From contig OZ024757.1 of the NCBI GenBank assembly GCA_964016885.1, positions 8,060,001 through 8,124,000 on the forward strand: 64,000 nucleotides of DNA, read 5' to 3'. Within the stretch, counting starts at the first letter, position 1. Every line of letters starts with the position of its first letter. This document shows, one piece after another, positions 3,692-45,478 of this stretch. Under the pieces are notes generated by a model. That model saw only the letters and a program-made list of their open reading frames with translations, had not been told where the DNA came from and made no database searches. The position numbers and the translations under genes were made by a program. The DNA is from Eledone cirrhosa. Lineage: Eukaryota.

Positions 3692-3882
3692 CCAAGGGAA
3701 AGGCTATGGCCGATACAGCTTGGCACCAGTGACATTACAACTCATTTCTACAGCTGAGTAAACTGGAGCAACGTAAAATAAAGTGTCTTGCTCAAGGACA
3801 CAACACATCACATGGTCCGAGAATCAAACTCACCAACTTTTAATTGTAAGCCCAATGCTCTAACCACTAAGCCATGATACCT
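3692..3882 (-). mobile_element. tRNA-derived SINE
   Basis: Reverse strand: A-box TGGCTTAGTGGTTAGAGC, B-box-like GAGTTTGATTC, conserved core GTCCTTGAGCAAGACACTT. Confidence 0.8.
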
Positions 3883-4315
3883 TCCAGAACCAACCGTGAT
3901 ATAGAGAGACCATAAAGACAACCGTTGTTTTCATAGTTTAAGCCTTAAAATACCTCTCATACATGCTTTAAGTACATATAAACTCATTAAAACACACTTT
4001 TGTATTTAAACACCAAAAACAGCCAGTAACGATCGTATAGAAACTACCACCAACTATCATACCACTAGTTACCAATGAGGACTATTGCCAGCCACGGTAG
4101 CCACTTGGTAATACACTGCACATCTCCCGTCAATCTATGAAGGGTTTGTAGTAGATTAGAGCAAAACACAATCAGTAAAACAATAATGGAATGAAAAATA
4201 TAAACATTTGTTCATAATTAAAGCCTTAAGATGTCCCTTCCTTACGATATACACTTTAATAACTTTGAAACTTATTTAATAAGTTTAAATTTTAAACACT
4301 TTTTATTCAGACGTA

Positions 4316-4461
4316 CCGCGATAAGAAACTAGATATGTTCTAACGAATAATCCGCGATGTGGCGAGGATTACCGCGATAGGAAATTAGATACGTTCCAAA
4401 GACATATCCGCGATGTAACGGGACCGCGAAAAGTGAACCGCGATATAGCGGGGGATTACTG
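4316..4461 (-). mobile_element. pogo/Tigger-like DNA transposon terminal fragment
   Basis: TA|CAGTAATCCCCCGCTATATCGCGG end on the reverse strand, with repeated CCGCGAT subterminal motifs. Confidence 0.6.
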
Positions 4462-4517
4462 TATATATATACACACACAACATACATCTATCTATATACA
4501 CTGATAACATATATTTC

Positions 4518-5137
4518 GGCAGTGTCATGGTATTAGCTGTCAGAAGTGAAAGTAGAAAAAGGTGTCGTCATTCGTCAACCTTCTCAATCCTTTATTTCCG
4601 TATCACTATTCCCTTTATTTATGTTTAGGATTTTCTAAGAGATACGTTTACGATGAGATACACTTATTAAATAATATATGGGGACCAAATAACCCCGTAA
4701 TTTTCGAGAGAAACGATAATATACAATCTTATTTAACATGTGTATTAAAAACTACACTAGCTGTTACAATTGTAATTAACGTGTAAGAACTTAAATGAAA
4801 ATATAGGTGGCCCTTAAAAGGGCCGGTGTTGAACTTAAATTTGTTTTCTAATTTGATAACCATGACTTGTTTCAACACCGGCCCTTTTAAGGGCCACCTA
4901 TATTTTCATTTAAGTTCTTACACGTTAATTACAATTGTAAGAGCTAGTGTAGTTTTTAATGCACATGTTAAATAAGATTGTATATTATCGTTTCTGTCGA
5001 AAATTACGGGGTTATTTGGTACCCATAAATAAAATCATAAACGTAAATAAACGGAAGAGTGATACGGAAATAAAGGATTGAGAAGGTTGACGACTGATGT
5101 CACCTTCTTTCTGACAGCTAATACCACGACAGTGCCC
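4518..5137. mobile_element. Palindromic foldback/MITE-like element with a histone-type stem-loop in each arm (copy 1)
   Basis: Long inverted arms GGCAGTGTCATGGTATTAGCTGTCAG...CTGACAGCTAATACCACGACAGTGCCC around a ~40 bp spacer; second copy at 18766-19386. Confidence 0.85.
4880..4900 (+). promoter_or_regulatory. Histone 3' stem-loop-like motif GGCCCT-TTTA-AGGGCC-ACCTA (mirror copy on - strand at 4804-4824)
   Basis: Fits the GGYYYU-UYUH-ARRRCC-ACC consensus; no histone ORF nearby. Confidence 0.6.
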
Positions 5138-5493
5138 TTTATTTCGATATCTTACATTAAAATGTTGACTGAGGGTGTGGCAACTGTTTCTTGTTTGAGG
5201 TTGTTTCAGTGGTTAAAATATAGACGGAGGTAATTAAATAATAAAGACAGTCATGATAACAATATATTTTATATCACATGTAACAGTGGAATCTGATGAT
5301 TGAAAAATATCACATCAACATTTCAGTTTGGAAGTGTTTTTTCTATATATAAAAGTGGAGGAAGAAATATATTTTTCTAATGATGTTATATATATTTTCA
5401 CTTGTATATAATTACTGGATCGTTGTAGGGTTCACATAATTATATTATTTACACACATTAATATAGACATTAAGTAAATCTTTGTCAACTTAC

Positions 5494-8074: not shown

Positions 8075-8318
8075 TTTCGTTTCTGAATTTGTTTAGCAAG
8101 ATTCTTTATCTGAAAACGTGTGTTGAAGCCGATATTGTTATACTTTGGGAGGGTCATGTTGCCAATAAGAAACACACGCACCAGTTGTTTCACTTCAATT
8201 TATTATAATAAATTTATAAATTTAGGAATTTATAAATTTCCGGTTGGTTGGTTCCACAACCAGATGACTGTTTATATATTGTCAAAGTTCTTTCGTCACA
8301 CATTCTGTGACCTCTTCA
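8075..8318 (-). mobile_element. Possible Penelope-like element remnant with degenerate hammerhead core
   Basis: Reverse strand TGAAGAG-GTCACA-gaatg-TGTGAC-GAAA at 8291-8318, embedded between TA tracts. Confidence 0.35.
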
Positions 8319-9176
8319 TATATGTATATTTATATATATTTATATACACTCATAATTATGTTTATATATTTATAAATATACATTTATATATATAAAGATA
8401 TATATTCTCTTACGTGTATACGTCTGAAAATGTATATATGTATGTAAACACATACCTAAACATACATCTATACATATAGATGGACAGTTATACATATACA
8501 ATAACTTATTTCTATACATATATATACCCCAAGTAAGGCATGGTGTTGCCAACTAACCAGACCTCCCTCATAATGGACCAGCTAGATCCCAAAATACAGG
8601 CCTGCTAGCCAACGCACAGTCCCAATAAGTGTAAGTTACAGCGCAGCTATCTGGACAGACTTGTCTTAAGACTACTCATTATCCCACTACATCTTTTGTG
8701 TACTATATATATACTGTATATATATACTGTTTATATATATATACACATATAATTGTGTATTCAAACATTATCCTAGTAATGAAATAATTAACAATTTTAG
8801 TAAATTGTTCAAAATTCTTCATTAACCCTTTTGGTAGGAACCCAGCCAAAATTGGTTCTCGTTCTATGGAAATGGTTCCTATCTAAATTAAAGTCTTCCA
8901 ACGAAATTCTATATAACAACCATATGTTATGTTACTATGTTAGTAATTAACTAACAATTGTGATAAATAGCTCAAAATTAGTCATAATTATTTGAAGTAC
9001 GAGGTTCATAATTATAATAAAATATTCGAACAGGCTACGAAGCCGGGAAACCTGAAAGGTACGCAACACACACATCGCTATAGCGTTTCACCAGCCAATT
9101 CCTTCCTCAATCATTACATAGATGCGTGTGTATGTAATAATTATTTTGTATTGTGTGTGTTTATGTATATGTATGA

Positions 9177-9510
9177 GTAGATGTGTAAACCCAGTAGATG
9201 TGTGTGTATGTAACTCAGTAGATGTGTGTGTATGTAACTTAGTAGATGTGCGTGTATGTAACACAGTAGACGTGTGTATGTAACACAGATGTGTGTGTAT
9301 GTAACACAGTAGATGTGTGTATGTAACATAGGAGATGTGTATATAACTCAGTAGATGTGTGTGTATGTAACTCAGTAGATATGTGTGTGTAACACAGTAG
9401 AAGTGTGTGTGTATATATAACACAGTAGTTGTGTGTGTATGTAACACAGTACATGTCTATGTAACACAGTAGATGTGTGTGTATATAACACAGTAGATGT
9501 GTATGTAACT
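9177..9510. repeat. ~22-24 bp minisatellite (AGTAGATGTGTGTGTATGTAACAC)n
   Basis: Tandem units; longer paralog at 17612-18480. Confidence 0.92.
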
Positions 9511-9974
9511 AAAGTGTAACGTACGTTACGAATGGACGACTAAATGATTTTAACTTGTTTTTTAGCAATTGATGGTGGAAAAGGGCCGCAACACAAGGAG
9601 TCTGACACTCTTACCGGCTACATAGTCTGGGAGTCTATTTTACCGGGACCGGCTACATAGCTTCTTCCTAAAATCTTCCAACATAATTTTATACAAGAAC
9701 CACATGTTAAGTTACTAATAAAATAATTAATAATTAAAAACTTTAGTAAATCCTTCCAATGATATCTCAGTAATGAAATAATTAATAATTGTTATAAATA
9801 CCTCAAAATTCCTCATTAATTAAACCCAAGACAGGTAAAAACTCCAGAGTCTTTCAGTCGGACATGAAACAAATTAATTTCTAATGGAAGAAAAGATTTT
9901 AAAGTTAGCCAAGGGAGATCACTCACAGCGACTTATTGTAATTCCGGTGTATTTTATGTGGTGGAAACCGTGTT

Positions 9975-10295
9975 TAGGCGGTGATAGCACGCATTACATG
10001 AACGTATGGTTCGTGAGTTCGAATCCCAGACGGGTGGTCTGTACGTTGAGGCCTTGAACAAGACACATTATTTCTCATTGTTTTATTTCACCCAACTGGA
10101 AAAATAATAAGTTGTACCAGTAATTATAGTGGAAACGTTGTTACATAGAATTGTCACACTGAATCTCCCTGAGAACAATGTCAACGGTATATGTGTCAAT
10201 GAAATACTCAGTCACATTATAATATAAGATGGGTTCTACATGTATTTCAAAGGGAAGCCATGTCATACATCTCGCTGAATCTCCCTGAGAACTCC
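9975..10295 (+). mobile_element. Old tRNA-derived SINE (paralog ~19605-19925)
   Basis: B-box GAGTTCGAATCCC followed by CCTTGAACAAGACAC core. Confidence 0.65.
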
Positions 10296-10304
10296 GTATA
10301 TACT

Positions 10305-10612
10305 AGTGACTATCAGACAGTGTATCTAGGACTACTTTATCTAATCTACAGTACAGTATTTAGTATTAGTGGCTATAAGACATAGTTTATCTAGGACTAC
10401 ATTATCTTATGTACAGTATAGAAATTAGTATTAATGGCTACCAGACATAGTGTACCTAGGACTACATTATCTAATGTACAGTATAGTGTCTATCAGACAT
10501 AGTGTACCTAGGACTACATTATATCATGTACAGTATAGTAGCTATCAGATATAGTGTATCTAGGACTACATTATCTAATGTTCAGTATAGCAGTTAGTAT
10601 TTGTGGCTATCA
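10305..10612. repeat. ~50-60 bp minisatellite (CTATCAGACATAGTGTATCTAGGACTACATTATCTAATGTACAGTA...)n; paralog 19935-20232
   Basis: Tandem units. Confidence 0.88.
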
Positions 10613-10648
10613 TTATTATAGACTTCAAGTAAATCTTTGACAACTTAC

Positions 10649-10846
10649 CTCCTTCACATATAATCGATGTGTTGTGTTGTTAGTTGTTACTAACCAAAGA
10701 AATAATCTCTTTGTTATCAAATTAGAAGTTTCAAAGATGTTATCAGCTATATTTCACGACATTAACGTTGGTGTCTCTTCTTCATCTTTAGTCATAAATT
10801 GATATCTTGGCAGAATGAAGTAGTGAGGCTGACTTTATGTCTTGAG
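10649..10846 (-). other. Putative non-coding exon, copy 2 of 5
   Basis: TGTAG acceptor and GAG|GTAAGT donor. Confidence 0.5.
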
Positions 10847-11058
10847 CTACACATTTCATAGGAAATATATATATATTAGGTTGATATGTGGTCTAAAATA
10901 TATATATTGTATATAAATGACTGATAGCAGATGTTCTGGTGAAATAGTAGTTTTACTACTACAGATTGTAATGGAACTCTTAGTAGACACAATTGTAAAG
11001 TAAGAATAGATATGACAGTGTAAGACTGATGTCGGGGAAATAAAATTGTGTGTGTGTG

Positions 11059-11111
<53 letters not shown>

Positions 11112-11388
11112 GTTACACAAGATATAATTAGATTAAGAAGACAGCAGGTACTCGATGTCGTTGGAAATGATTTAACTCCCTTACCGGTGTCATTAGTTAA
11201 AAGTCCCTGATATAATTTAATACATTCAGACAGTTCCAATTGTATTTAATCGATAGTAAATGAAAAGGTATCACTCAGTAAAATATCAATTATATATCGA
11301 CGCAGTGTCTCTGACTGCTAGAAATAACAGTGAAATTATCCATTACAGACTTTTCTTTCTTTAAACTCTTACGTTTAGTAGATGTTTG

Positions 11389-11920
11389 TGTTGAGAACGT
11401 GTGTAATTGTGTATTGTATCACGGAAGTCACCATTGAAGATGTTAAAAGCAATGTTGTGGAAAATAGCATCGTACGACTTTGTAATTGTTTATATATAAT
11501 TTATTGTCAGATTAGAAAGGTTAGAAGAATGTCTCTTGAGAGGATAGTTAATGTTATCAATAAAAAGGTTATAAAGATTTAAAGACGTACGGTCAACTGG
11601 CTGAGGCGTTAGCCAGACCTGTAGTGATATCTGTTGCTACATATTGTCTATGCTTGAGGAACGAAAGCAAGAGATGTTTACCTTCACGGTGTCGAGCTGC
11701 AAGAGGAGAGTATCGAATCTCTGCGGGAACTTTTCCCACTGGACAGAAGTCGAGATACATTTTCCTACGCTGGTAGCGATTGGCTGAACTGAGCCAAACA
11801 ACGCACAGAGAATGTATCCATGAGCCCTCGGAATGTAGGTCACTACATACCCCCTATTTAGTCGGCAAGACGATATATAAGATTGAATCAGCAGGAAAAA
11901 GGCTTAAGAAGAGGACATCA
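11389..11920 (+). mobile_element. Possible LTR plus PBS/leader remnant (copies ~20979-21510 and ~53239-53765)
   Basis: TGTTGAGAACGT...AATAAA...ACGTACGGTCAAC followed by TGG; replaces the sequence found after the same flank at 6197. Confidence 0.35.
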
Positions 11921-11921
11921 A

Positions 11922-11969
<48 letters not shown>

Positions 11970-11980
11970 ATATATATATA

Positions 11981-12858: not shown

Positions 12859-12881
12859 TATGTATACATATATAATATACG

Positions 12882-12925
<44 letters not shown>

Positions 12926-12939
12926 CGTGTATATATATA

Positions 12940-14420
12940 AAGGGGATGATCTGGAGAAGAACAATTATAGGGGCATGAAACTGATGGATCAGGTTATGAA
13001 AGTGGCAGAAAGGATATTAGCACAACTAATTAGAGAAAGGGTCAAACTAGATGAGATGCAGTTTGGTTTTGTGCCTGGGAAGAGTACAACAGATGCCCTC
13101 TTCTTGGTGAGACAATTGCAAGAGAGGTTCTTAGAGAAGAATAAGTCACTCTACTTAGCCTTTGTTGACCTAGAGAAGGCCTTTGATAGGGTACCCCAAT
13201 CTGTCATCTGGTGTTCCCTAAGGAAACTAGGTGTTGAGGAATGGCTTGTGAGGACAGTGCAAACTATGTACAGAGGTGCAGTCAGTAAAGTCAGGGTAGG
13301 AATGGAGTTTAGTGAGGAATTCCAGATACAAGTAAGAGTACATCAAGGTTCGGTCCTCAGCCTGCTCTTGTTCATTATAGTCCTCCAAGCCATAACAGAG
13401 GAGTTTAAGATTGGCTGTGCATGGGAACTTCTCTATGCTGACGATCTGGTTCTTATAGCAGAATCAATAGAGGAGATAGAGAATAAATTCCGGCTATGGA
13501 AACAGCAGTTGGAAGCAAGAGGACTGAGGGTGAACCTAGCTAAGACAAAAGTGTTGATGAGTAGAAAAGAGGACAAAACCCTGATTCCGTCAGGGAAATG
13601 GCCAAATTCGATATGCAGAAAAGGAACTGGCATAAATTCTATAAAATGCACACAATGCAGATCCTGGGTACACAAGAGATGTAGCGGGATAGCAGGCAAA
13701 CTAACAGGTAGGGAGAAATATGTATGCAGTAGATGTACAGGGAAATTAGACAGTAGAAGTCGCATTGATGGACACATTTTTCAAATGCAGGAGGGCGCTA
13801 TAGAAGTGGTGGATAGCTTCCGGTACCTAGGAGATCAGATTAGCATGGGATGAGGGTGTTCCGAGGCCATAGTATCTAGAATAAGGACGGGTTGGAAGAA
13901 GTTTAGGGAGTTGCTTCCTCTGCTGACGAAGAAGGGTTTCTCCCTGCGTACGAAAGGCCGGTTGTATGATACCTGTGTGAGGAGCGCTATGCTGCATGGT
14001 AGTGAGACATGGGCAGCAACTGCAGAGGATATGTGACGGCTGGAGAGAAATGAGGCAAGCATGCTCCGTTGGATGTGCAGTGTAAATGTGCGTGAACGAC
14101 CCAGCATAAATGTGTTGAGAGAGAAACTGTGTCTGAGAGGGATAGAATATAGTGTACGGGAGAGGAGACTGATGTGGTATGGACATGCGATGCACATGGA
14201 GGATGACCGATGGGTGAAGAAGTGCCAGTTGAAGGAAGACGTGGTAGAGGTAGACCACGAAAAACATGGGCGGAGGTGGTGAGAACAGACCTCAGATCAT
14301 TGAAGCTCACGGTGGAGATGACGAGGGAACGTGACGAGTGGAGAGATGCTGTGCTGAATAAGACCCGTCCCACCCTTGCAAGCAGGGAAAAGCGGACGTA
14401 AAATGATGATGATGATGATT
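12940..14420 (+). mobile_element. RTE LINE family B, 5'-truncated, RT with PHD-type insert, (ATG)n tail
   Basis: ORF 12921-13853 (FVDLEKAFDRV, HQGSVLS, LYADDLVL, FRYLG); downstream stops; very short 3' UTR CCCTTGCAAGCAGGGAAAAGCGGACGTAAA(ATG)n. Confidence 0.92.
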
Positions 14421-16404: not shown

Positions 16405-16738
16405 GAGGCACATGGGTTAGTGGTTAGAACATTGGCCTTGTAATCGAAAGGTTGTGAGTTCAATTCTCAAACCAGGTGATGTGTTGTTTCCTTGAGCAAG
16501 ACACTTTATTTCACATTGCTCCAGTTTACTCAGCTGTAAAAATGAGATGATAGGAACAGGGGTCCCTGTAAAGTGGTCGTGGAGGTGCCACGGAAAAAAA
16601 GCACCCAGCACTCACTGTAAATGAGGTTGGTGTTAGGAAGGGCATCCAGCTGCAGAAATCAAGCCAGAATTAGTTCCCCTCTCACCCTTGCAAGCAGGGA
16701 AAAAGCGGACGTAAAACGATGACGATGATGATGATGAT
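16405..16738 (+). mobile_element. Full-length tRNA-derived SINE with RTE-derived 3' tail
   Basis: A-box and B-box head, CCTTGAGCAAGACACTT core, GGTTGGTGTTAGGAAGGGCATCCAGCTG motif, RTE-B-like end and (ATG)n. Confidence 0.88.
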
Positions 16739-16792: not shown

Positions 16793-16828
<36 letters not shown>

Positions 16829-17611
16829 TCATATGTATGTTTATATATATATATATAAAGATATATATACTCTTACATGCATACATCTGAAAATGTATAT
16901 ATGCATGTAAACACATACCTAAACATACATGTACAGTTATACATATACAATAATTTATTTCTATACATACATATACCACAAGTAAGGCATGGTGTTGCCA
17001 ACTCACCAGACCTCCCTCATAATGGACCAGCTAGATCCCAAAATACAGGCCTGCTAGCCAACACACAGTCCCAATAAGTGTAAGTTACAGCACAGCTATC
17101 TGGACAGACTTGTCTTAATACTACTCATTATCCCACTACATCTTTTGTATACTATATATATACTGAATATATATACTGTTTATATATATATACACATATA
17201 ATTGTGTATTCAGACATTATCATAGTAATGAAATAATTAATAATTTTAGTAAATTGTTCAAAATTCTTCATTAATCCTTTTGGTAGAAACCCAGCCAAAA
17301 CTGGTTCTCGTTCTATGGAAATGGTTCCTATCTAACGAAATTCTATATAACAACCATATGTTAAGTTACTATGTTAGTAATTAACTAACAATTGTGAGAG
17401 ATAGCTCAAAATTATTCATAATTAATTGAAATACGAGGTTCATAATTATAATAAAATCTTCGAATAGGCTACGAAGCCGGTAAACCGTAAAGGTACGCAA
17501 CACACACATCGCTATAGCGTTTCACCAGCCCCTTCCTTTCTCAATCATTACATAGATGTGTGTGTATGTAATAATTATTTTATATTGTGTGTCTGTTTAT
17601 GAATATGTATG

Positions 17612-18480
17612 AGTAGAGATGTGTGTGTGTGTGTAACTCAATAGATGTGTGTATGTAACTCAGTAGATGTGTGTGTGTGTAACACAGTAGATGTATGTGT
17701 ATGTAACACACTAGATGTGTGTGTATAACACAGTAGATGTATGTGTATGTAACACAGTAGATGTGCGTGTATGTAACACATTAGATGTGTGTGTGTAAAC
17801 CAGTAGATGTGTGTGTATGTAACACAGTAGATATGTATGTAACACAGTAGATGTGTGTATGTAACATGGTAGATATGTGTGTGCATGTAACACAGTAGAT
17901 GTGTGTGTGTGTAACACAGTAGATGTGTGTATGTAACACAGCAGATGTGTGTGTGTGTAACCCAGTAGATGTGTGTGTATGTAATACAGTAGATGTGTGT
18001 GTGTCTGTAACCCAGTAGATGTGTGTGTGTGTGTGTGTATGTAACCCAGATGTGTGTAGGTAACACAGTAGATGTGTGTGTGTAACCCAGATGTGTGTGT
18101 ATGTAACTCAGTAGATATGTGTGTATGTAACTCAGTAGATATGTGTGTATGTAACTCAGCAGATGTGTGTGTATGTAACTCAGCAGATGTGTGTGTGTAA
18201 CACAGTAGATGTATGCGTATATATAACACAGTAGATGTCTGTATGTAACACAGTAGATGTTCGTGTATGTAACAGAGTAGATGTGTAAGTATGTAACACA
18301 GATGTGTATGTAACACAGTAGATGTGCGTGTATGTAACACAGTAGATGTGTGTATATATATAACACAGTAGATGTGTGTGTATGTAACAGTAGATGTATG
18401 TGTATGTAACACACTAGATGTGTGTGTATATATAACACAGTAGATGTGTGTATATGTAACACAGTAGATGTGTATGTAAC
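17612..18480. repeat. ~22-24 bp minisatellite, expanded paralog of 9177-9510
   Basis: Tandem units; explains the His/Thr-rich spurious ORFs. Confidence 0.92.
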
Positions 18481-18765
18481 TAAAGTGTAACGTACGTTAC
18501 GAATGGACGACTAAATGATTTTAACTTGTTTTTTAACAATTGATGGTGGAAAAGATTTTAAATTGTCTCAACTCAGACCATAAAGGGCCGCAACACGTGC
18601 TGTCTGACACTCTTATCGGCTACAATGCCTGGGAGTCTATTTTACCGACACCGGCTACATAGCTTCTTCCTAAAATCTTCCAACTGTTACTAATAAAATA
18701 ATTAATAATTAAAAACTTTAGTAAATTCTTCCAATGATATCTCAGTAATGAAATAATTACTAATT

Positions 18766-19386
18766 GGGTACTGTCGTGGTATTAGCTGTCAGAAAGAAGG
18801 TGACGTCATTCGTCAACCTTCTCAATCGTTTATTTCCGTATCACCACGCGGTTATTTACGTTTATGATTTCATTTATGGGAACCAAATAACCCCGTAATT
18901 TGAGAGAGAAACGATAATATACAATCTTATTTAACATGTGCATTAAAAACTACACTAGCTGTTACAATTGTAATTAACGTGTAAGAACTTAAACGAAAAT
19001 ATAGGAGGCCCTTAAAAGGGCCGGTGTTGAACTTAAATTTGTTTTCTAATTTGATAACCATGACTTGTTTCAACACCGGCCCTGTTAAGGGCCACCTATA
19101 TTTTCATTTAAGTTCTTACACGTTAATTACAATTGTAACAGCTAGTGTAGTTTTTAATGCACATGTTAAATAAGATTGTATATTATCGTTTCTCTCGAAA
19201 ATTACGGGGTTATTTGGTCCCCATATTATTTTTTTAATAAGTGTATCTCATCGTATGCGTATCTCTTAGAAAATCCTAAACATAAATAAAGGGAATAGTG
19301 ATACGGAAATAAAGGATTGAGAAGGTTGACGAATGACGTCACCTTCTTCTGCTTTCACTTCTGACAGCTAATATCATGACACTGCC
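18766..19386. mobile_element. Palindromic foldback element with histone-type stem-loops (copy 2)
   Basis: Same element as 4518-5137 with arms inverted; absent from the paralogous site at ~9790. Confidence 0.88.
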
Positions 19387-20269
19387 GAAATATATGTTAT
19401 AAATACCTCAAAATTCCTCATTAATTAAACCCAAGACAGGTAAAACTCTTTCAGTCGGACATAAAACAAATTAATTTCCAATGGAAGAAAAGATGTTAAA
19501 GTCAGCCAAGGGAGATCACTCTCAGCGACTTATTGGAATTCTTGTTCGTGAATTAATCTGGAATAAGTCATTCCGGTGTATTTTGTGTGGAGGAAACCGG
19601 TTTTAGGTGGTGATAGCACGCCGTACATAAACGTATGGTTCCTGAGTTCGAATCCCAGATCGGGTGGTCTGTACGTTGAGGCCTTGAACAAGACACTTTA
19701 TTTCTCATTGTTTTATTTCACCCAGCTGGAAAAATAATAAGTTGTACCAGTAATTATAGGGTAAACGTTGTTACATAGAATTGTCGCACTGAATCTCCCT
19801 GAGAACAATGTCAACGGTATACGTGTCAATGAAATACTCAGACACATTATAACATAAGATGGGTTCTACCCTTGTATTTCAAAGGGAAGCCATGTCATAC
19901 ATCTCGCTGAATCTCCCTGAGAACTACGTATATACTAGTGACTATCAGACATATTGTATCTAGGACTACATTATCTAATGTACAGTACAGTAATTAGTAT
20001 TAGTGGCTATCACACATAGTGTATCTAGGACTACATTATCTAATGTACAGTATAGTGTATATCAGACATATCGTACCTAGGACTACATTATCTAATGTAC
20101 AGTATAGTAGCTATCAGACATAGTGTATCTAGGATTATATTTTCTAATGTACAATATAGTGGCTATCAGACATAGTGTATCTAGGACTACATTATCTAAT
20201 GTTCAGTATAGCAGTTAGTATTTGTGGCTATCATTATTATAGACTTCAAGTAAATCTTTGTCAACTTAC

Positions 20270-20468
20270 CTCCTTCAGATATAATCAATGTGTTGTGTTG
20301 TTAGTTGTTACTAAACAACCAAAGAAATAATCTCTTTGTTATCAAATTAGAAGTTTCAATGTTATCAGCTTTATTTCACGACATTAACGTTGGTGTATCT
20401 TCTTCTTATTTAGTCATAAATTGATATCTTGTCAGAATGAAGTAGTGAGGCTGACTTTATGTCTTTAG
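20270..20468 (-). other. Putative non-coding exon, copy 3 of 5
   Basis: CTGTAG acceptor and GAG|GTAAGT donor. Confidence 0.5.
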
Positions 20469-21551
20469 CTACAGATTTGTTAGGAAATATCTATATATAT
20501 TAGGTTGATATCTGGTCTAAAATATATATATTGTCTATAAATGACTGATAGCAGATGTTCTGGTGAAATAGTAGTTTTACTACTACAGATTGTAATGGAA
20601 CTCTTAGTAGACACAATTGTAAAGTAAGAATAGATATGACAGTGTAAGACTGATGTCAGGGAATTAAAATTGTGTCTGTGTGTATATATATATATATAAT
20701 TGTTACACAAGATATAATGAGATTCAGAAGACAGCAGGTACTCGATGTCGTTGGAAATGATTTAACTCCCTTACCGGTGTCATTAGTTAAAAGTCCCTGA
20801 TATAATTTAATACACTCAGACAGTTCCAATCGTATTTAATCGATAGTAAATGAAAAGGTATCACTCAGTAAAATATCAATTATATATCGACGCAGTGTCT
20901 CTGACTGCTAGAAATAGCAGTGAAATTATCCATTACAGACTTTTCTTTCTTTAAACTCTTACGTTTAGTAGATGTTTGTGTTGAGAATGTGTGTATTTGT
21001 GTATTGTATGACGGAAGTCACCATTGAAGATGTTAAAAGCAATGTTGTGGAAAATAGCATCGTACAACTTTGTAATTGTTTATATATAATTTATTTACAG
21101 ATTACAAAGGTTATAATAATGTCTCTTGAGAGGATAGTTAATGTTATCAATAAAAAGGTTATAAAGATTTAAAGACGTACGGTCAACTGGCTGAGGCGTT
21201 AGCCAGACCTGTAGTGATATCTGTTGCTGCATATTGTCTATGCTTGAGGAACGAAAGCAAGAGATGTTTACCTTCACAGTGTCGAGTTGCAAGAGAGAGA
21301 GTTTCGAATCTCTCCGGAAATTTTTCCTTCTGGGCGGATGTCGAGGTACATTTTCCTACGCTGGTAGCGATTGGTTGAACTGAGCCAAACAGCGCACAGA
21401 GAATGTATCCATGAGCCCTCGGAATGTAGGTCACTACAATACCCTCTATTTAGTCTGCAAGATGATATATAAGATTGAATCAGCAGGAAAATTGCTTAAG
21501 AGGGCACATCACAGAAAAAATTGAACAAAAGAATGTATATATATATACGTG

Positions 21552-21582
<31 letters not shown>

Positions 21583-21650
21583 ATATATATAACCCATGCT
21601 AGCGTGCAAAGTGGACGTTAAAGGATGATGATATATATATGTATATATAT

Positions 21651-24182
21651 ATCATCATCATCATCATCGTTTAACGTCCATGTTCCACGCTTGCATGGGT
21701 TTGGACGGGAGTTTTCCCACTTGAGGCAAGAGTGTTTGTCTTGTTCGCATAGGACTGTCTGGCGGATTTTCTACGGCTGGATGCCCTTCCTAACACCAAC
21801 CACATTTACAGTGTAGAACTGGGAGGTTTTTACCGTGTTATCTACACGGCCACATTACAGTGTGGACTGTGTTTTTTTGTCGTGAGACCTACACGACCTC
21901 ATTTGTTTCGGCCTGGATGTTGTGGTACCAACATAACTTTACATGGAAAGAGGTGAAGTGGATAGGGTGTGGGTATATTTTGTTAGAGGTGTCTACTGAC
22001 TGTAGTAGGTTTTACTTTGTATTTAGGTAAGGCGGGTCTTCTCTATTACTGTGTAGCGCCAAAGATCTCGGTCCAGAGACATTGTCTTGGAGAGGTGTAA
22101 GTGTGTGAGGTCGGAATTTATCAAGTCGTCCCAGGTTTTTCAGGAACTGCCTACTCCGTGGCTACCGCCTATTTTTATTGCCCTGCACTTTGTTATACAG
22201 CTGTCGTCTTTCATGCGCATCACGTGACCATACCAACGTAGTCTTCTCTCGAGTAAACAACATCTGATCCCTCTTATTCCTAATTTCTCCCTTAGTTTGT
22301 TTATGCTTTGCCGTTCACGTATATTACTATTACACATCCAGCGGAGCATGCAAGCTTCGTTCCTCTCTAGTCTGCGTATATCCTCTGCACACAATGCCCA
22401 GGTCTCACGGCCATGCAACATTTATGTTCGTATGCAGGCATCATACAGTCTACCTTTCATTTTTAAGGAGAACCCTTTAGCGGCTAATAGTGGTATAAGC
22501 TCTCTGAACTTTTTCCATCCAGTTCTGACTCTAGCTACTGTACTTTCAGAGCACCCACCCCTACTGCTGATTTTGTCACCCAGGTAACGGAAGCTGTCCA
22601 CTATTTCTATAGAACCATCTGTGCAATCGAATGAGCTAGTATTCTGTGGGCACTTGCTGCTACTTATTGCACCAGAGCACCGGCCACATATAAAAGCAAT
22701 GTTCTTAGTTAGCTTACTTGTGATCCCCCTACATCTTTTATGCACCCATACTTTGCATTTGGGACATAAAATGGAGTTTCTACCTACTCCTTTCCTACAC
22801 ACTGAGCATGGCCATTTCCCGGATAGGACCGGCGCCCTATTTTCCTTCCTACAAACTAGAACTTTAGTCTTAGACAGGTTAATTTTAAGGCCTTTTGATT
22901 CTAGGCCATGCTTCCATGTTTGGAATTTCTTCTCTAGTTCGGCCATTGATTCAGCTATGAGCGTTAGATCATCTGCGTATAGGAGTTCCCATGGGCAGCC
23001 GGTCTTGAACTCCACTGTTATAGCCTGAAGGGCAATAATAAATATTAGGGGGATAAGAACGGAGCCCTGATGAACACCAACTTTTACGCTAAACTCTTCA
23101 CTATATTCGTTGTTAATTCTAACCTTGCTGACTGTTTCTTTATACATGGCTTGTATAGCTCTCACAAGCCATTCATCAACACCTAGTTTTCTAAGAGCCC
23201 ACCAGATAATGGAACGGGGGACTCTGTCGAAGGCTTTCTCCAAGTCGACAAAACCTAAGTATAGGGGTTTACTTTTAGCTAGGTACTTCTCCTGTAGTTG
23301 TCGTACAATGAAAAGAGCGTCTGTGGTACTTTTGCCAGACACAAACCCGAACTGCATTTCATCTAGATCAATTCTCTCTCTGATTAGTTGCACTATTACT
23401 TTTTCTGTGACCTTCATGACCTGGTCGATTAATTTAATGCCTCTATTGTTACTCCTATCTAGGGCATCTCCTTTACCCTTGTAGCAGTTAATGATGATGC
23501 TGCTATGCCAGTCCTTCGGAACAACCCCATTCTGTATGACTTGGTTTACTATCCGTGTGACCATGGTGTGTCCCACCGTTCCAAGGATTTCAGCATTTCA
23601 GCAACTATTTCCGAAAGCCCAGCCGCCTTACCCGTCTTCATATCTTTGATTGCCTTACTTATTATACTACCTTCGACTAACACTGCTGTTCCCTCTATTG
23701 GGTCGATGTGTGGGAAACTGTCTTTCTCCCATTTATTCTCCTCATTTAGTAGCCTTTCGTAGTGACACTTCCAAGCTACCTTCTTATCAGCGTCAGTGAT
23801 GGCAAGTACGCCATCATCATTAAGTACACACTTCTCCCCTAAAATATCACGGTTTTCCTTGACACATTGCCTAGCAATCCTGAACACCTCACGTTTTTGG
23901 TCCTCGCGTTGTAGAACATGCTTGAACTTTCTTTCCTCTGCTTCCCTTCTTGCAAAGTACACTTATCTCCTAGCTTCCCTCCTGGCCACCAGATAGTGTT
24001 CTATACTTCCCCCATCCCACCATGCTTTCCAAGCCTGCTTTTTGGCCTTAATTGACTCCTCCCCCTTACTGTTCCACCACCATGTTACTCTCCTCCTGCC
24101 TATAGATCTGCTCCAGACACAGATTTCATCTGCTGCCATCAGCAAGTTTGCTTTCAGGAATTCCCATTGTTCCTCTATATTG
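21651..24182 (-). mobile_element. RTE LINE family A, longest copy (pre-RT linker, RT, PHD-type insert, C-terminus, 3' UTR)
   Basis: ORFs 23549-23962, 22422-23576 (KGKGD, DLEKAFD, HQGS, YADD, C4HC3, YLG) and 22140-22421, separated by frameshifts; no endonuclease domain present. Confidence 0.93.
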
Positions 24183-24258: not shown

Positions 24259-25117
24259 ATGTGTGGACGATATTTGGTTGCAATTTTCAACTGCTAATTT
24301 TATGCCAATTTTTTTTACTCCGTTGTCACTGTTGTCCTCATAAAAACAGTGACTATATTTCCATTATTTATTTTCAGAATAATTGATTATGAATAATTTT
24401 GAACCTCCAAATTTGTGGCAGAGACACGGAGTTCTTCTTGGAATCTGCGCCGGGAGGACAAGTAAGACCAGAAGTTAACTCCCAGAACAACATGTGGCTC
24501 GCTGTCTCATCCAAAGACGTGCCCAGAGTCATACAGATAAAGTTTCCACCGACAACAGTGGTCTTAGGTGTCGTCATGCCACCTGACTGCTTCCCTGAGG
24601 GTCTCAAGCTGAACACCGATGGCTACATTCGCGTTCTGAGCGAGGTAGTAAAGCCCTTGATGGACCAGGTAGCTGCAGGTAGGCCGTACGTGTGGCAGCA
24701 AGACTCAGCGCCCTGCCATACCAGCCGAATGATCCAAGCCTATCTGACAGAGAACTTCGTTGACCTCACCTCCCCTGACATCTGGCCGCCCAGCTAGTCT
24801 GATTGCAATCCTCTCGACTTCTTTGTGTGGGGCGCAGTGAAACAAGACACCAACAGATCTAGCTGCAATACGAAAGACGATCTGAAGGCCAGGATCACAA
24901 GTGCCTTTAGGGGCCTAAGTCAGGGGACAGTGACGAAGGCCTGTAGGCGGTTTCGAAGCCGTCATAAAAGCCAATGGCAGGTTTATCAAGTGAGATTGAA
25001 AGAACAAGTCATGAAGACAAACTGACCCAAGTTTGATAAATAAATCTTAAAAAACAAAACTACTGTGTTATTATTTCCTAGACAGTAATCTTGCGAATAA
25101 TTATCGTCCGCACCCTG
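24259..25117 (+). mobile_element. Non-autonomous DD37D (maT) Tc1/mariner element
   Basis: TIRs, TA flanks, WQQDSAPCH...WPPS*SDCNPLDFFVWG. Confidence 0.88.
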
Positions 25118-26959: not shown

Positions 26960-27543
26960 CTGAGACAGACTGAGCATCAGAGGAATCAAATGCTGTGTGC
27001 AGGAGAGTCGGTTGCGTTGGTATGGACATGTGATGCGTATGAAGGATGATAGCTGCATAAAAAGGTGCAGAGCACTAGAAGTCGATGGAAGCCGCGGAGT
27101 GGGGAGACCCAAGATGACCTGGGATGAGGAGATAAAAGCCGACCTTACCCAATTACACCTCTCAAAGGCAATGACACACGACCGTGACCTCTGGCGTCAC
27201 GCAGTAATACAGAGTACCCGACCTCCCATGGGTACAAGTTGAAGCATATAGACAATATGCCCCCACACCCCCCACTGCAAGGTGGTCGTGGAGGTGCCAC
27301 GGCAAAAAAGCACCCAGCCCACACTGTAAAGTGGACGTGTAGGCGCCACGAAAAGCACCCAGCACTCACTGTAAATGAGGTTGGTGTTAGAAAGGGCATC
27401 CAGCTGTAGAAATCAAGCCAGACCAGTTCCTGTATGAGCAAGGAATGGTCAGCCGACCAGACACTGCCCAGAACAGGACAACCTGTCTAACCCATGCTAA
27501 AGTGGAAGAACGGACGTAAAACAGTGATGAGGATGATGATGAT
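26960..27543 (+). mobile_element. RTE LINE family D 3' end with structured 3' UTR
   Basis: RLRWYGHVMRM...GRPKMTW ORF 26997-27242, pseudoknot-like modules, (ATG)n tail. Confidence 0.85.
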
Positions 27544-27544
27544 A

Positions 27545-27713
27545 TCTAAAATAGAGAATGCCTAAAACTGAAGAACCACCCAACCGATTGTCTTTAAACT
27601 TTAGACATGTAATATTTATAGTCCTGTGAGTGTTTTGAGGAGAAAAATTTCAAATTTTCAATGCCCTAGGGACCGCATTAGGCGATTTAGCGATCTCCAG
27701 CACATTCGGCTAG
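27545..27713 (+). mobile_element. Short non-autonomous Helitron-like element (paralog 57601-57769)
   Basis: A|TCTAAAATAG...AACCGATTGTCTTTAAACTTT...GCTAG|T ends, no TSD; 3' hairpin not clearly intact. Confidence 0.55.
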
Positions 27714-27732
27714 TAATATATATATAATATAT

Positions 27733-27945
27733 ATGGCTTAGTGGTTAGAACATTGGGCTTGTAATTGAAAGGTTGTGAGTTCAAATCTTGGACCGGGTGA
27801 TGTGTTATGTCCTTGAGCAAGACACTTTACTTCACGTTGCTCCTTCTACCTGGAGTTGTGATCAATAGATAGTATTAGCAATTGGAAAGACCAATGGAAA
27901 CATTGTTTCTTCGGTCCAATTTGACGAAAGTCGATCGACTGACGA
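27733..27945 (+). mobile_element. tRNA-derived SINE, second family (non-ATG tail); paralog 57790-58000
   Basis: A/B boxes, GTCCTTGAGCAAGACACTT core; same body as 34391-34600. Confidence 0.8.
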
Positions 27946-28131
27946 TATATATATGTATATATATATATTATACATATATATATAATATATATATATATGT
28001 GTCACTTGCTGGATCTGCTAGAAGGACCCAGATAATATGAGATGTTCTCCCGGCTGTATCATATACTGCAAATCTATGCAGATGTATACACATATATACA
28101 CAAACACATAAAGATACACTTGTAATTATAC

Positions 28132-28650
28132 ACACATTGAAGTGGTTGATAGCTTCTGTGACTTAATTAGCAGTGGAGGATGACTGTATAACACCTGCCA
28201 ATAAAATATGATGCTGCATGGTAGTGAAACAAGGGCTGTGACAGTAGAAAAAAAGTGTAGACTGGAGAGGAATGAAGCAACCATGATACATTGGATGTGC
28301 CATTTAAGTGTGAGAGAAAGGCAGAGCTTGGACAAATTGAGGGAGAAGCTGGGTTTAAGAGGGATCTTATGAGATGTGTAAGAGAGAAGACTGGATTGGT
28401 ACGGACATGTGATACACATGGATAATGACAGCTGGGTGAAGAAGTGCCAGGATATCACAGTAGAAAGAAGCCATAGTAGAGGTACACCAAGAAAGACCTG
28501 GACAGAGGCTGTGTGAACTGACTCTCACAGAGGAGATGACAAAGGAACACGACAAGTTGAAAGATGCCATGTTGAGAAGGACATGTCCAGCCCAAGGAAG
28601 CATAGAAAAACGAACATAAAAACAGTGATGATGTTGATGAAGATGACGTA
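28132..28650 (+). mobile_element. Degenerate RTE 3' fragment (paralog 58188-58705)
   Basis: Remnants of MLHGSET, RLERNEA, WYGHV; degenerate ATG tail. Confidence 0.75.
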
Positions 28651-28697
28651 CATATTCACACATACATAATAAATAAATCAAATACAGATATGCACAG

Positions 28698-29039
28698 TGG
28701 AGGCACATGTCTTAGTGGTTAGAGCATTGGCCTTGCAATCGAAAGGTTGTGAGTTCAATTCTCAGACTGTGTGATGTGATGTTTCCTTGAGCAAGACACT
28801 TTATTTCACATTGCTCCAGTTTATTCAGCTGAAGAAATGAGATGATAGGGACTGGGGTTCCTATCATTCCACTGCAAAGTGGTCGTGGAGGTGCCACGGC
28901 AAAAAAGCACCCAGCACTCTCTGTAAATGAGGTTGGTGTTAGGAAGGGCATCCAGCTGTAGAAATCAAGCCAGAATCAATTCAGTCCCACCCTTGCAAGC
29001 AGGGAAAAGCGGACACAAAATGATGATGATGATGATGAT
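28698..29039 (+). mobile_element. Full-length tRNA-derived SINE with RTE tail (paralog 58754-59091)
   Basis: Same family as 16405-16738. Confidence 0.88.
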
Positions 29040-29203
29040 ATGCACATACTTATATACAAACATATACATGGACACAAATTTCTACACACATACATTCACA
29101 TATAGCATATGTCAATTCTGAACAATACAGTTTAGTCAGCACAAGTCTTGGTTACAACTTCTACAAATAAAATGAAAGAAGAAGAATTTCTTAGTAAAAC
29201 AGT

Positions 29204-29209
29204 TTTATT
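29204..29209 (-). terminator. Candidate AATAAA polyadenylation signal of the ZNF transcript (paralog 59256-59261)
   Basis: First AATAAA seen on the - strand after the decayed-finger tract. Confidence 0.4.
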
Positions 29210-29299
29210 CAAGATATTAACAACATTGGTGGCAGTATTTTAGGTGAGTGACATGGTTTTTACCTTGTCTGATTGTGTTTGTGTTGCATCAAGTAACAT

Positions 29300-29780
29300 T
29301 TACAAGAGAATTATTTACCACAGACACCACAATGATATGGTTCCTCTCATGTATATGTTAGTGTGTAGTGAAGTCACAACATTTAGAGAATGATTTATCA
29401 CAGACACCACAGGGATATGGTTCCTCTCCTGTATATGTTAGTGTGTAGGCAGGCCACAACATTTAGAGTATGATTTATCACAGACATCACAGGGATATGG
29501 TTCCTTTCCTGTATATTAGTGTGTAGTGAAGCCACAACATTTAGAGAATGATTTACTACAGACATCACAGTGATATGGTTCCTCTCCTGTATATTAGTGT
29601 CTAGTTAAACCACAACATTTAGAGAATGATTTATCACAGTGATATGGTTCCTCTCCTGTATGTTAGTGTTTAGTGAAACCAAAACATATAGAGAAGGATT
29701 TACCACAGACATCACAGTGATATAGTTCTTCTCCTGTATGTTAGTGTCTAGTGAAACCAAAATTAGAAAATGATTTACAT
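29300..29780 (-). repeat. Decayed zinc-finger-derived ~70-80 bp tandem repeats (putative 3' UTR); paralog 59355-59830
   Basis: Units retain GGAGAGGAACCATATCACTGTGATGTCTGTGGTAAATCATTCTCT (GEEPYHCDVCGKSFS-like) but are shorter than 84 bp and out of frame. Confidence 0.8.
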
Positions 29781-29782
29781 GG

Positions 29783-29899
29783 GCTCACGGTGTATATGAC
29801 AAAGGACCGTGACAAGTGGAGAGATGCTGTGTTGAATAGGACTCATCCCACCCTTGCAAGCAGGGAAAAGCAGACGTAAAATGATGATGATGATGATGA
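29783..29899 (+). mobile_element. RTE family B extreme 3' end inserted in the decayed-finger tract (paralog 59833-59952)
   Basis: Matches 14305-14420; (ATG)n tail. Confidence 0.85.
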
Positions 29900-30113
29900 T
29901 ATGTTTTCCCTCATCTATGCATATATTTAGTTAAATTGCTGCATTAAAAGATATATTTTCCAAACATATCAAAGTGATATGGCTTCCCACCTGTATATAT
30001 TTGTGTTAATGTAGCATTGAAAGAGAATGATTTACCATAGATATTACACTGATATATATTTGTATTCTCATTAATTCACAATTTTGTGAGGATTTATCAC
30101 TGATGTCAATTCG

Positions 30114-31890
<1,777 letters not shown>

Positions 31891-32067
31891 AATAATTTTA
31901 TCTCCAACAGAATATACTTGTAATATTTTTTAGATTATATTCCTAAAAAATATATCTTCTATATTTCCCTCAACTGTGATTTCAGTTAATAGTCTTCAAA
32001 TGATGATAAATAGAGGTGATGTATCCGAGATTGAAAATAATAATTTATCCTAATGTCATCTGGTATT

Positions 32068-32095
32068 CTGAAATAAGAAAGAAACAGTATGAGAT
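32068..32095 (-). promoter_or_regulatory. Splice acceptor of the ZNF coding exon (paralog 62109-62135)
   Basis: ACTGTTTCTTTCTTATTTCAG| polypyrimidine tract plus CAG, 177 nt upstream of the ATG. Confidence 0.7.
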
Positions 32096-32450
32096 AATAG
32101 AGAATACTTAAGAAGCAGAGATAGATTTAACAGTGGAAATTTTATATTTCTATATTGGTAGACTGTAGATATCAACTTTCCTGTCCAGAGTAATTCTCTC
32201 CAATGCAAACAGTGGTATTCCAGCATGCTCTATAAATGTTATCCTTCTATCTCTAGAGAAGTCTGCTCTATGGCAGTTTAGTGAAAAATTCCTTCTGATA
32301 GGACTCTCTAACATAGCAATTATCTACTCTCCTGGTGACATGACAACACCAGTTTAACTTCCATCTTTTTATTAGTAGGAGTCAATTGTTCCTCTACATC
32401 TTTTTCTTACTTCTTTTCTATCTTCCTCTGGGAGAAATCGGCTGTGTTTA

Positions 32451-33575
32451 TCCTTTGCAGTTGCTGCCCATGTCTTACTACCATGCAGCATCGCACATCG
32501 GCATCATATAACCATCCTTTCGTATGCAGGGACAAACCCTTCTTTGTCAACAGAGAAAGCAGCTCCCTAGACTTCTTCCAACCCATCCTTATTCTAGATA
32601 CTATGGCCTCGGAACACCCCTCCCATGCTAATCTGATCACCTAGGTACCGGAAGCTATCAACCACATCTATAGAACCCACCTGTATTTGAAAAATGTGTT
32701 TATCACTGCGATTACTACTGCCAACTTTCCCTGTACATCTACTGCATACATAGTTATCCCTACCTGTTGGTTTGCCTGCTATCCCACTACATCTCTTGTG
32801 TACCCAACATCTGCATTGCGTACATTTTATGGAATTTATGCCAGTTCCTTTCCCACATATCGAACATGGCCATTTCCACGATGGAATCAGAGTTTTGTCC
32901 TCTTTTCTACTCATCAACACTTTTGTTTAAGCTATGTTCACTCTCAGGCCTCCTGATTCCAACTGCTGTTTCCATAGCCAGAATTTATTCTCTAACCCCT
33001 CTACTGATTCGCTGATTCTGCTATAAGAACCAGATCATCAGCATAGAGAAGTTCCCATGGGCATCCAGTCTTAAACTCCTCTGTTATGGCTTTTAGGCCT
33101 ATAACGAACAAGAGTAGGCTGAGGACCGAACCTTGACGTACACCTACTTGTATCTGGAATTCCTCACTAAACTCCATTCCTACCCTCACTTTACTGACAG
33201 CACCCCTGTACATAGCTAGCACTGTCCTCACAAGCCATTCCTCTACACCTAGTTTCCTTAGGGACCACCAGATGACAGATCAGGGTACCCTATCAAAGAC
33301 CCTCTCTAGGTCAATAAAAGATATGTATAGTGACTTATTCTTCTCTAAGAACCTCCTTGTAGTTGCCTCACTATGAAGAGGGTTTCTGTTGTACTTTTCC
33401 GAGGCACAAAACCAAACTGCATCTCATCTAAATTGACCCTTTCTCTAATCAGCTGCGCTAATATTCTCTCTGCCACTTTCATAACCTGATCCATCAGCTT
33501 TATGCCCCTATAATTGCTCCTCTCTAGAGCATCCCCTTTACCTTTGTAGCAATTTATGAGAATACTGCTGTACCT
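32451..33575 (-). mobile_element. RTE family B internal fragment (paralog 62492-63615)
   Basis: ORFs 32594-32920 (PHD-type insert) and 33001-33231 (YADD). Confidence 0.88.
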
Positions 33576-33627
33576 ACATTATATGCTTTCATTATACCAT
33601 TCTATTTAGATTATATATATTGATTGT

Positions 33628-34083
33628 CATCATCATCATCGTTTAACGTCTACCTTCCACGCTGGCATGGGTTTATATGGGAATTGTCCCACTTGAGGCA
33701 AGATTGGTCGGGTGACCGTATCTCACTTGTATAGGACTAGATGGCGGGTTTTCTATGGCTGGATATCCTTCCTAACACCAACCACGTTTACAGTGTGGAC
33801 TGGGAGGTTTTTACCATGTTACCTACACGGCCACATTACAGCGTGGACTGTGTGTTTTTTTGTCGTGACACCTACACGATCTCATTTATTTAGGACTGGA
33901 TGTTGTGGTACCAACATAACTTTACAGAGATAGGGTGGTGTTGATGGGGTGGAATAGGGGTAGTGGGATGTATATTTGGTTAAGAGGTGCCTACTGACTG
34001 TAGGTTTCGCTATGTACATAGGCAAGGCGGATCTTCTGTATTACTGAGTAGCGCCAAAGATCTCGGTCCAGTGACATTGTCTT
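33628..34083 (-). mobile_element. RTE family A 3' end (paralog 63669-64000)
   Basis: 3' UTR modules and (CAT)n tail. Confidence 0.85.
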
Positions 34084-44489: not shown

Positions 44490-45478
44490 ATGTCTAAGAC
44501 TAAAGTCCTAGTTTGTACAAAGGAAAATAAGGCACAGGTACCCTCAGGGAAATGGCCATGCTCAGTGTGTAGGAAAGGAGTAGGCAGAAATTTCATTTTA
44601 TGTCCCAAATGCAAAGTATGGGTACATAAAAGATGTAGTGGGATCACAGGTAAACTATCTAAGAACGTAGACTTTATATGTGGCCGATGCTCAGGTGCAA
44701 TAAGTAGCAAGTGTCCACAGGATACTAGCTCCTTCTATTGCCCAGATGGTTCTATAGAAATTGTAGACACTTTCCGTTACCTGGGTGACGAAATCAGCAG
44801 TGGTGGAGGGTGCTCTGAAAGTACAGTGGCCAGAGTCAGAACGGGATGGAAAGAGTTCAGACAGCTTATACCGCTGTTGGCCGCTAAAGGTTTCTCTCTA
44901 AAAATGAAAGGCATATTGTATGATGCTTGTATATGACAAGCAATGTTACATGGCAGTGAGACACGGGCATTGTGTGAAGAGGACCTGCGTAGACTGGAAA
45001 GGAACGAAGCATGCATGCTCCGTTGGATGTGTAATAGTAATATACGTGAACGGCAAAGCATAAATGAACTAAGTGAGAAATAAGGAATAAGAGGGATCAG
45101 ATGCTGTTTACACGAGAGAAGACTACGTTGGTATGGTCACGTGATGCGCATGTAAGACGACAGCTGCATAAAAAAGTGCAGGGCGATCAAAATTGACGGT
45201 AGTTACGGAGTAGGTAGACCCAGAAAAACCTGGGACGATCTGATAAATTCCGACATTACACACTTACACCTCTCTAAGACAATGTCACTGGAACGAGATC
45301 CTTGGCGCTACACAGTAATACAGAAGACCCGCCTTCCCTATGTACACAGTGAAACCTACAATCAGTAGGCACCTCTTAACCAAATATACACCCCAATCCA
45401 CTATCCCTACCCTATCCTCCCACTCCCACCAACACCACCCTCTCTCTATAAAGTTGGTACCACAACATTCAGTCCAAA
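44490..45478 (+). mobile_element. RTE family A fragment
   Basis: ORF 44490-44936 with intact C4HC3 motif; stops downstream. Confidence 0.88.

Follow-up and report, generated by a model that had tools for sequence, protein, structure and literature searches.

The window, i.e. the whole 64-kb stretch of DNA analysed, contains two copies of a real, abundant, non-autonomous palindromic DNA element that carries genuine histone-type hairpins and has unusual ends (Table 1). In its behaviour the element can be likened to a miniature inverted-repeat element mobilised in trans. The best explanation overall, to which we give about an even chance, is that of a palindromic non-autonomous transposon whose hairpins are a relic of its parent, which prefers a particular target, inserts without duplication by way of recombinase-type ends and masks its own hairpins in RNA. 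BLAST and nhmmer searches of the 64-kb window found just these two copies. A weak terminal match at 44855–44872 lies within LINE coding sequence, is without nhmmer support and was rejected.

Table 1. Coordinates of the two element copies, their parts, hairpins and insertion sites in the window
Feature	Position	Strand	Remarks
Copy 1	4509–5137 (start 4509 or 4510)	.	Includes unpaired 8–9-base extension at long-arm end
Unpaired end extension, ATATATTTC	4509–4517	+	Beyond the inverted repeat
Long arm	4518–4833	+	~316 bases
Unpaired central spacer	4834–4870	.	37 bases
Short arm	4871–5137	+	~267 bases; CCC at element end
Stem-loop with flanks, copy 1	4804–4829 (stem 4809–4824)	−	Reads outward; Rfam RF00032, 40.5 bits at 4785–4829
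Stem-loop with flanks, copy 1	4875–4900 (stem 4880–4895)	+	Reads outward; Rfam RF00032, 40.5 bits at 4875–4919
Left half of target motif, ATAACA	4504–4509	+	Same at copy 2 (19395–19400, minus) and at its empty site
Right flank, TTTATTTC	5138–5145	+	Right half of target motif
Copy 2	18766–19395	Inverted relative to copy 1	Short arm first; long-arm end 19386; extension 19387–19395
Stem-loop, copy 2	19002–19027 (stem 19007–19022)	−	3′ flank ACC to TCC; 29.8 bits, below gathering score
Stem-loop, copy 2	19073–19098 (stem 19078–19093)	+	First loop base T to G; 34.6 bits
Empty paralogous site of copy 2	9784–9795 (junction 9790/9791)	−	In older segmental duplication

The two copies lie 14 kb apart in opposite orientations and are 92.5% identical, with a per-arm divergence of 3–7%. 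In both copies the arms are unequal, the long arm containing blocks of 11 and 39 bases that are absent from the short arm. As DNA, the palindrome folds at −265.9 kcal/mol (z −45.8 against 20 shuffles). The inner parts of the long and short arms are nearly identical (136–139 of 141–142 positions), whereas the outer parts agree at only 104–109 of 121–122. The spacer has the same sequence in both copies, yet lies in opposite orientation with respect to the arms. Inner-arm near-identity, outer divergence and a flipped spacer together fit exchange confined to the inner arms; the second hairpin may thus be a passive mirror rather than the end of a second gene. A different repeat, also very abundant and with CCGCGAT subrepeats (two 47-base copies), ends just to the left of copy 1, at 4314–4462.

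Each hairpin comprises a 16-base stem-loop (a 6-base-pair stem and a 4-base loop) with conserved flanks, a combination that scores above the cut-off of the Rfam Histone3 model (RF00032). The initial annotation had placed ACACC-GGCCCT-TTTA-AGGGCC-ACCTA at 4875–4900 (+) and its mirror at 4804–4829 (−), and these coordinates are correct; coordinates and strands likewise bear out its statement that the hairpins sit at the inner edge of the arms and read outward. The proposed fit to the histone stem-loop consensus is confirmed for three of the four arms, which exceed the gathering score of 34 (E-values of 1.8e-08, 1.8e-08 and 2.9e-06, the third match spanning 19073–19117 on the plus strand). The fourth arm, at 18983–19027 (−), has an E-value of 1.8e-04. 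No other gathering-level match to any Rfam family occurs in the whole window, and a degenerate hairpin pattern matched four times in the window and not once in 100 shuffles.

For copy 2, the annotated positions of the hairpin pair and the loop substitution stand, but the count of one substitution does not, as a second lies in the 3′ flank of the other hairpin. One of the two changes thus affects a loop base and the other the first 3′ flank base, both of which are important for SLBP. Two substitutions in 104 motif positions, compared with six in 460 positions in the rest of the inner arm (Fisher p 0.64, a comparison of low power), suggest that the hairpin is mutating at the background rate. In the public reads, variants inside the two motifs fall on the fourth loop base only (4889 A to C and 4815 T to G, among the 40 of 66 rows listed). 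This variant gives the loop UUUC, the canonical loop of histone stem-loops.

That there is no histone ORF here, as annotated, holds on the wider scale of the window: neither histone nor transposase families were found among 150 of 153 ORFs scanned across it (at least 75 aa, complexity-filtered, Pfam cut-offs; the three left out all come from the duplicated right end), and the gap between a hairpin and its mirror motif is just 45 bases. The longest stop-free frame in the element, of 76 aa, is in the long arm; a search of 1.84 billion representative proteins yielded no true relative of it. Three matches to this frame were dismissed, being internally repetitive and 29–37% identical over short stretches, with summed weak scores. 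The reported absence of a clear purine-rich downstream element is also upheld: no AAAGA-, AAGAG- or GAAAG-type word occurs within 35 bases of the motif, these being candidate words from which the host element may differ, and no purine-rich element lies 10–25 bases 3′ of the stem, a judgement that depends on the host U7 RNA. Pairing of U7 with the downstream element belongs to the histone 3′ end pathway, and the available part of the same source gives AATCC as the candidate element in C. elegans (PMC1924863).

Pfam matches at cut-offs elsewhere in the window are to reverse transcriptase, PHD and C2H2 zinc-finger families. LINE fragments, in which the reverse transcriptase is followed by a PHD finger, occur in many places (e.g. 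1127–2908, 12876–13850, 22425–23597 and 54661–55569). Their named animal relatives are from Hydractinia, Branchiostoma and Mercenaria (51–59% identity); the best match (73%) carries a bacterial MAG label and probably reflects contamination by the host. An invertebrate animal is thus the likely host. Long C2H2 zinc-finger arrays are found in a 7-kb segmental duplication (26962–33959 and 57022–64000, 98.5% identical), split into two frames at 30117–31929 and present as a single 605-aa frame at 60156–61970; a homologue search for the zinc-finger N-terminus found none. By eye, the frame at 24393–24794 (+) looks like a Tc1/mariner catalytic fragment; it is without a Pfam match at E 0.01. A dispersed repeat, possibly a tRNA-derived SINE head, gives weak tRNA-like matches that fall short of the Rfam cut-off (3819–3881, 28704–28771 and 58760–58827, with related matches near 16441, 19628, 27776, 34439 and 57832).

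Copy 2 is flanked by sequence that is duplicated without the element at 8315–11980. This belongs to an older duplication (8315–11980 and 16794–21589, ~80–90% identical, with a TACACA-type satellite), the source of the empty site, which reads AATT/GTTAT at 9790/9791. The empty paralogue, together with the high repetition of the family, indicates that the element is mobile, as the initial annotation had supposed. Its extent of 4518–5137 needs revision, however, since the moved unit is longer: copy 2 shares with copy 1 a further 8–9 bases (4509/4510–4517), which the empty site lacks. The insertion at copy 2 thus consists of the inverted-repeat element plus the nine bases at 19387–19395. Apart from a 1–2-base ambiguity, copy 2 lacks a target-site duplication; the junction of its short arm coincides with the element end and has no homology to the flank of copy 1. 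The extension and the next five flank bases (4504–4517) form a 14-mer found only at the two copies. For copy 1, two contigs among the loose ends listed for public run X1 join the left flank (to 4509) straight to 5138 and are likely to represent an empty site.

The insertion targets of the two copies agree at 11 of 12 bases, ATAACA-W-TTATT. Agreement of this degree is reached by only 4 of ~128,000 non-element positions on both strands, one of them the copy 2 empty site and the other three members of a single repeat; an iid estimate, made with the motif already known, is 3e-05. The extension resembles the target at eight of nine bases at copy 1, whose empty site is taken from the X1 loose ends, and at five of nine at copy 2. 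The two insertions, which are all the readable ones (n=2), differ in register by one base. An extension of 8–9 bases, the lack of a duplication at copy 2 and the shared 11/12 motif suggest target-specific, recombinase-type insertion. A fixed extension with a preferred target and no duplication is graded as probable, at somewhat better than even. A Mutator-type duplication with copy 2 as a secondary copy is possible but considerably less likely, and some other arrangement of the ends is less likely again.

The alternative that survives best is a Mutator/Foldback-type or other DDE element that makes ordinary 7–9-base duplications, with copy 2 made locally from copy 1 by repair and having gained 8–9 flank bases via microhomology. 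Copy 1 taken alone fits an imperfect duplication of eight bases (7/8) or seven bases (6/7), its left flank being TATATTTC and its right flank TTTATTTC; the latter would be the right copy of an 8-base duplication that matches 4510–4517 at seven of eight positions. The two X1 contigs that link the left flank with 5138 look like a classical empty site, and the copies are just 14 kb apart. Long unequal inverted repeats with short asymmetric outer ends, a Mutator/Foldback feature, are present, and the 7-base reading of copy 1 gives CGG and CCC ends that resemble motifs A1 and A2 of Tm1 in the available part of its description (PMC3169594). The 8–10-base duplication of such elements is approached by copy 1 (7/8) only if it starts at 4518; if it starts at the C of CGG there is no 8–9-base duplication, and copy 2 has none. 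Additionally, the short-arm junction of copy 2 at the very end of the element, without homology to the flank of copy 1, argues against a repair-made copy, as do the 3–7% per-arm difference and the likeness of the two targets on both sides of the cut. Such an origin is possible but, on balance, unlikely. Asymmetric, duplication-free and target-specific ends match no family tested; the enzyme that mobilises them may be one that is poorly described.

Seven of 12 public runs contain part of the stretch, none of them recorded as RNA, and four were aligned. Over the element, the contigs of run X1 have summed depths, which are not copy numbers, from the hundreds to the tens of thousands, compared with 2–11 for long flank contigs. 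Depth peaks at the hairpins (25,935 at 4815 and 11,736 at 4889, to which real histone genes may contribute) and at the terminus (12,094 at 4548), and it is low in mid-arm (2,545 at 4743 and 607 at 4672). The element thus belongs to a highly repeated family whose relatives retain mainly the terminus and the hairpin. A joint of 4548 to 4789 represents a mini-arm relative with terminus and hairpin only, and joints in run X10 suggest a modular or tandem relative built from 4525–4547 (the terminal 23 bases) and a spacer piece, 4841–4867. Family-specific patterns had no matches in viral contigs, metagenomes or prokaryote genomes, and a generic back-to-back hairpin pair had none in metagenomes or prokaryote genomes; these collections hold little animal DNA, so the blank scans say little. 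A single-hairpin pattern matched one viral locus, within a 784-aa phage-like ORF, and was judged a chance match.

One locus in run X10, read from only three start places, has 4876–4915 alone in common with the element, with a UUUC loop. Its upstream letters are unrelated to the element and include GGT TAA ~28 bases before the stem, which is reminiscent of the end of histone H4. The locus bears on a second alternative, a Pack-MULE-like capture of the 3′ end of a host histone gene, in which the hairpin was never used by a transposon gene. Capture was proposed for Tm1-HH by Gross and Williamson (PMC3169594), and the X10 locus, which shares the hairpin region alone behind unrelated letters, speaks for it too. 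However, the GGT TAA match is weak, a stop occurs in all three frames within those 30 upstream letters, and the locus is likewise without a visible purine-rich downstream element. Beyond 4915 it carries a motif that is also present in the joints of element relatives; for this reason it looks like a family member. Capture is therefore rather doubtful, and we retain descent of the hairpin from a parent element as the likelier origin. The locus is the best lead to either that parent or a histone gene.

RNA folding was predicted with an equilibrium model without proteins. The isolated hairpin folds as expected (−11.5 kcal/mol), and in RNA beginning in the spacer the predicted stem-loop probability is 0.85. 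In RNA entering from either flank or from an element end it is at most 1e-10 in all 23 cases computed, and in RNA ending at the last base of the stem it is 4e-11. The long duplex is predicted at −61.7 kcal/mol, against −23.0 for two separate hairpins; the hairpin would thus be lost in read-through RNA because its antisense twin 45 bases upstream pairs with it in a longer duplex. Nine base pairs within the motif are predicted to form first and seed the zipping. A kinetic trap seems unlikely, since the inner flanks would pair before the stem exists. The predicted read-through product is a ~260-base-pair RNA duplex rather than a histone-type end. The earlier proposal, that every insertion supplies both strands with a potential 3′ end of the non-poly(A) type, is not supported, in view of this predicted masking and of the background mutation rate of the motif.

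These predictions also weigh on a third alternative, that the hairpin module is actively maintained in the non-autonomous elements, either as a DNA site for transposition or as a co-transcriptional cut site. In the latter form, RNA would be stopped before the second arm, which would spare the element long double-stranded RNA and silencing; the outward orientation would put the cut just ahead of the second arm for RNA from either side. Coverage is deepest over the hairpin region, the hairpin is retained in mini-arm relatives, and the hairpin with its 3′ region is the best conserved part of Tm1-HH in the available part of its description (PMC3169594). Maintenance of this kind is nevertheless improbable given that even RNA reaching no further than the last base of the stem would, by prediction, lose the stem-loop, that the nine motif base pairs form first and seed the zipping, and that both hairpins of copy 2 are substituted, at the background rate. 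Finally, the notion that the histone likeness is a chance resemblance of a 16-base palindromic protein-binding site, although the stem is a short palindrome within a palindromic element and a downstream element is not visible, is very hard to reconcile with an E-value of 1.8e-08 against all Rfam families, no match in 100 shuffles, flank asymmetry and loop polarity that fit a histone hairpin, and a common variant on the fourth loop base.

The preferred reading of the element as a transposon with a parent-derived hairpin can be set out in four steps, with the stem-loop at each inner arm edge a likely relic of the end of a parent gene. First, a longer parent would have had at least one outward ORF that stopped just before the hairpin, its mRNA being finished by SLBP-type processing instead of polyadenylation; the initial annotation had proposed such a parent, whose expression would be coupled to S phase. 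Second, the 37-base spacer would be what an internal deletion left behind, and the near-identical inner arms would have undergone an exchange that mirrored the hairpin and flipped the spacer; given such exchange, two hairpins need not imply two transcripts. Third, the ends would probably have been processed by a tyrosine-recombinase-type (Crypton-like) enzyme, because the joined ends form two inverted repeats around an 8–9-base AT-rich core that resembles the target, a proposal drawn wholly from the geometry of the ends. Fourth, the antisense twin is predicted to mask the hairpin of the mini-element, read-through RNA forming a ~260-base-pair duplex. The parent, its ORF and the enzyme have none of them been seen, so that the first and third steps are what we infer. 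A bolder reading, which we consider rather unlikely, is that of a lineage of animal DNA transposons that insert at specific targets without duplicating them, have long and asymmetric inverted repeats and are moved by a tyrosine recombinase whose mRNA ends in a histone stem-loop. If it were true, the SLBP pathway would tie transposition to S phase, and a very large family of mini-elements would carry the mirrored hairpins as a conserved module.

The histone 3′ end pathway is generally taken as serving histone genes. A transposon hairpin has been published for one family, Tm1-HH, in which its role is given as not known in the available part of the source (PMC3169594). A second hairpin-bearing family, in a distant animal and probably with a different end chemistry, suggests repeated use of the signal by DNA transposons. 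Transposase mRNA restricted to S phase would suit cut-and-paste elements, which gain copies during replication. The present family makes this idea testable, as its ends and hairpin are direct probes for an autonomous parent. That insertions scatter working RNA end signals is a weak claim; the host is more likely to be affected through long double-stranded RNA.

Precedent for histone hairpins in DNA transposons, to which the initial annotation had appealed, is indeed provided by Tm1-HH of root-knot nematodes (Meloidogyne), a non-autonomous Mutator/Foldback element with one histone hairpin, whose autonomous partner encodes a transposase resembling Phantom (PMC3169594, Gross and Williamson 2011). 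As far as the available part of that description goes, both are non-autonomous DNA transposons with a histone hairpin and no coding potential, a conserved stretch leading from the hairpin toward the repeat, arms that are unequal and ~93% alike, and asymmetric outer ends with a CGG start and a CCC finish. Tm1-HH differs in having a single hairpin between composite repeats of 14-base units, whereas the present element has a hairpin inside each arm and is palindromic almost to its centre. Duplications of 8–10 bases flank 45 of 53 Tm1-HH elements, in contrast to copy 2, and Tm1-HH is described as without target preference, unlike the motif common to both insertions here. A palindromic element with a hairpin per arm was not described in the literature searched; prior description in subscription journals, most of which lay outside that scope, or in Repbase Reports is quite possible. 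The zebrafish transposon EnSpm-N6_DR is reportedly palindromic with histone hairpins, for which the literature search gave no confirmation. Compared with the 3′ end of replication-dependent histone mRNA (RF00032), the element has the stem-loop but no upstream ORF and no recognisable purine-rich downstream element, and has an antisense twin 45 bases upstream.

Other systems share the lack of duplication. Spy elements, in the available part of their description (PMC4122938), have no target duplication and have inverted repeats that are long in some cases. Membership was rejected, as the target is not AAA/TTT (the empty site being AATT/GTTAT) and the element ends are GGCAGTGT, GGGCACTG and GGGTACTG, not the GGANNNNG of Spy. 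Helitron2/Helentron elements likewise insert without duplication, and the inverted repeats of Helitron2 are asymmetric; according to the available parts of the sources, these repeats are 8–15 bases long, the 3′ one lying 20–30 bases from the end, ahead of a hairpin (PMC3627910, PMC13085455). Membership was rejected here also, given repeats of ~260 bases, an extension of merely 8–9 bases and no terminal hairpin: none of six end folds stands out (best z −1.84).

The closest parallels to the ends are found among tyrosine-recombinase systems, as far as these are described in the available parts of the sources. Cryptons insert without true duplications and have microhomology to their targets (PMC13465315), and some CryptonV families are target-specific (PMC8869645); the absence of a true duplication at copy 2, the possible end-to-target microhomology and the apparent target specificity of the element would be Crypton-like, with the one-base difference in register between the two insertions as a conflict. 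The CryptonV targets cited are microsatellites, unlike the present target (PMC8869645). Published CryptonA, F, I and S are described as without terminal inverted repeats (PMC3212892, PMC13465315), in contrast to the ~260-base inverted arms of the element, which is for this reason not classed as a Crypton. Tyrosine-recombinase sites consist of two inverted repeats around a 6–8-base core, to which the 8–9-base core of the joined ends is close (PMC3212892). Likewise, the fungal Starships, with their asymmetric inverted repeats, offer a structural parallel to the element (PMC13465315).
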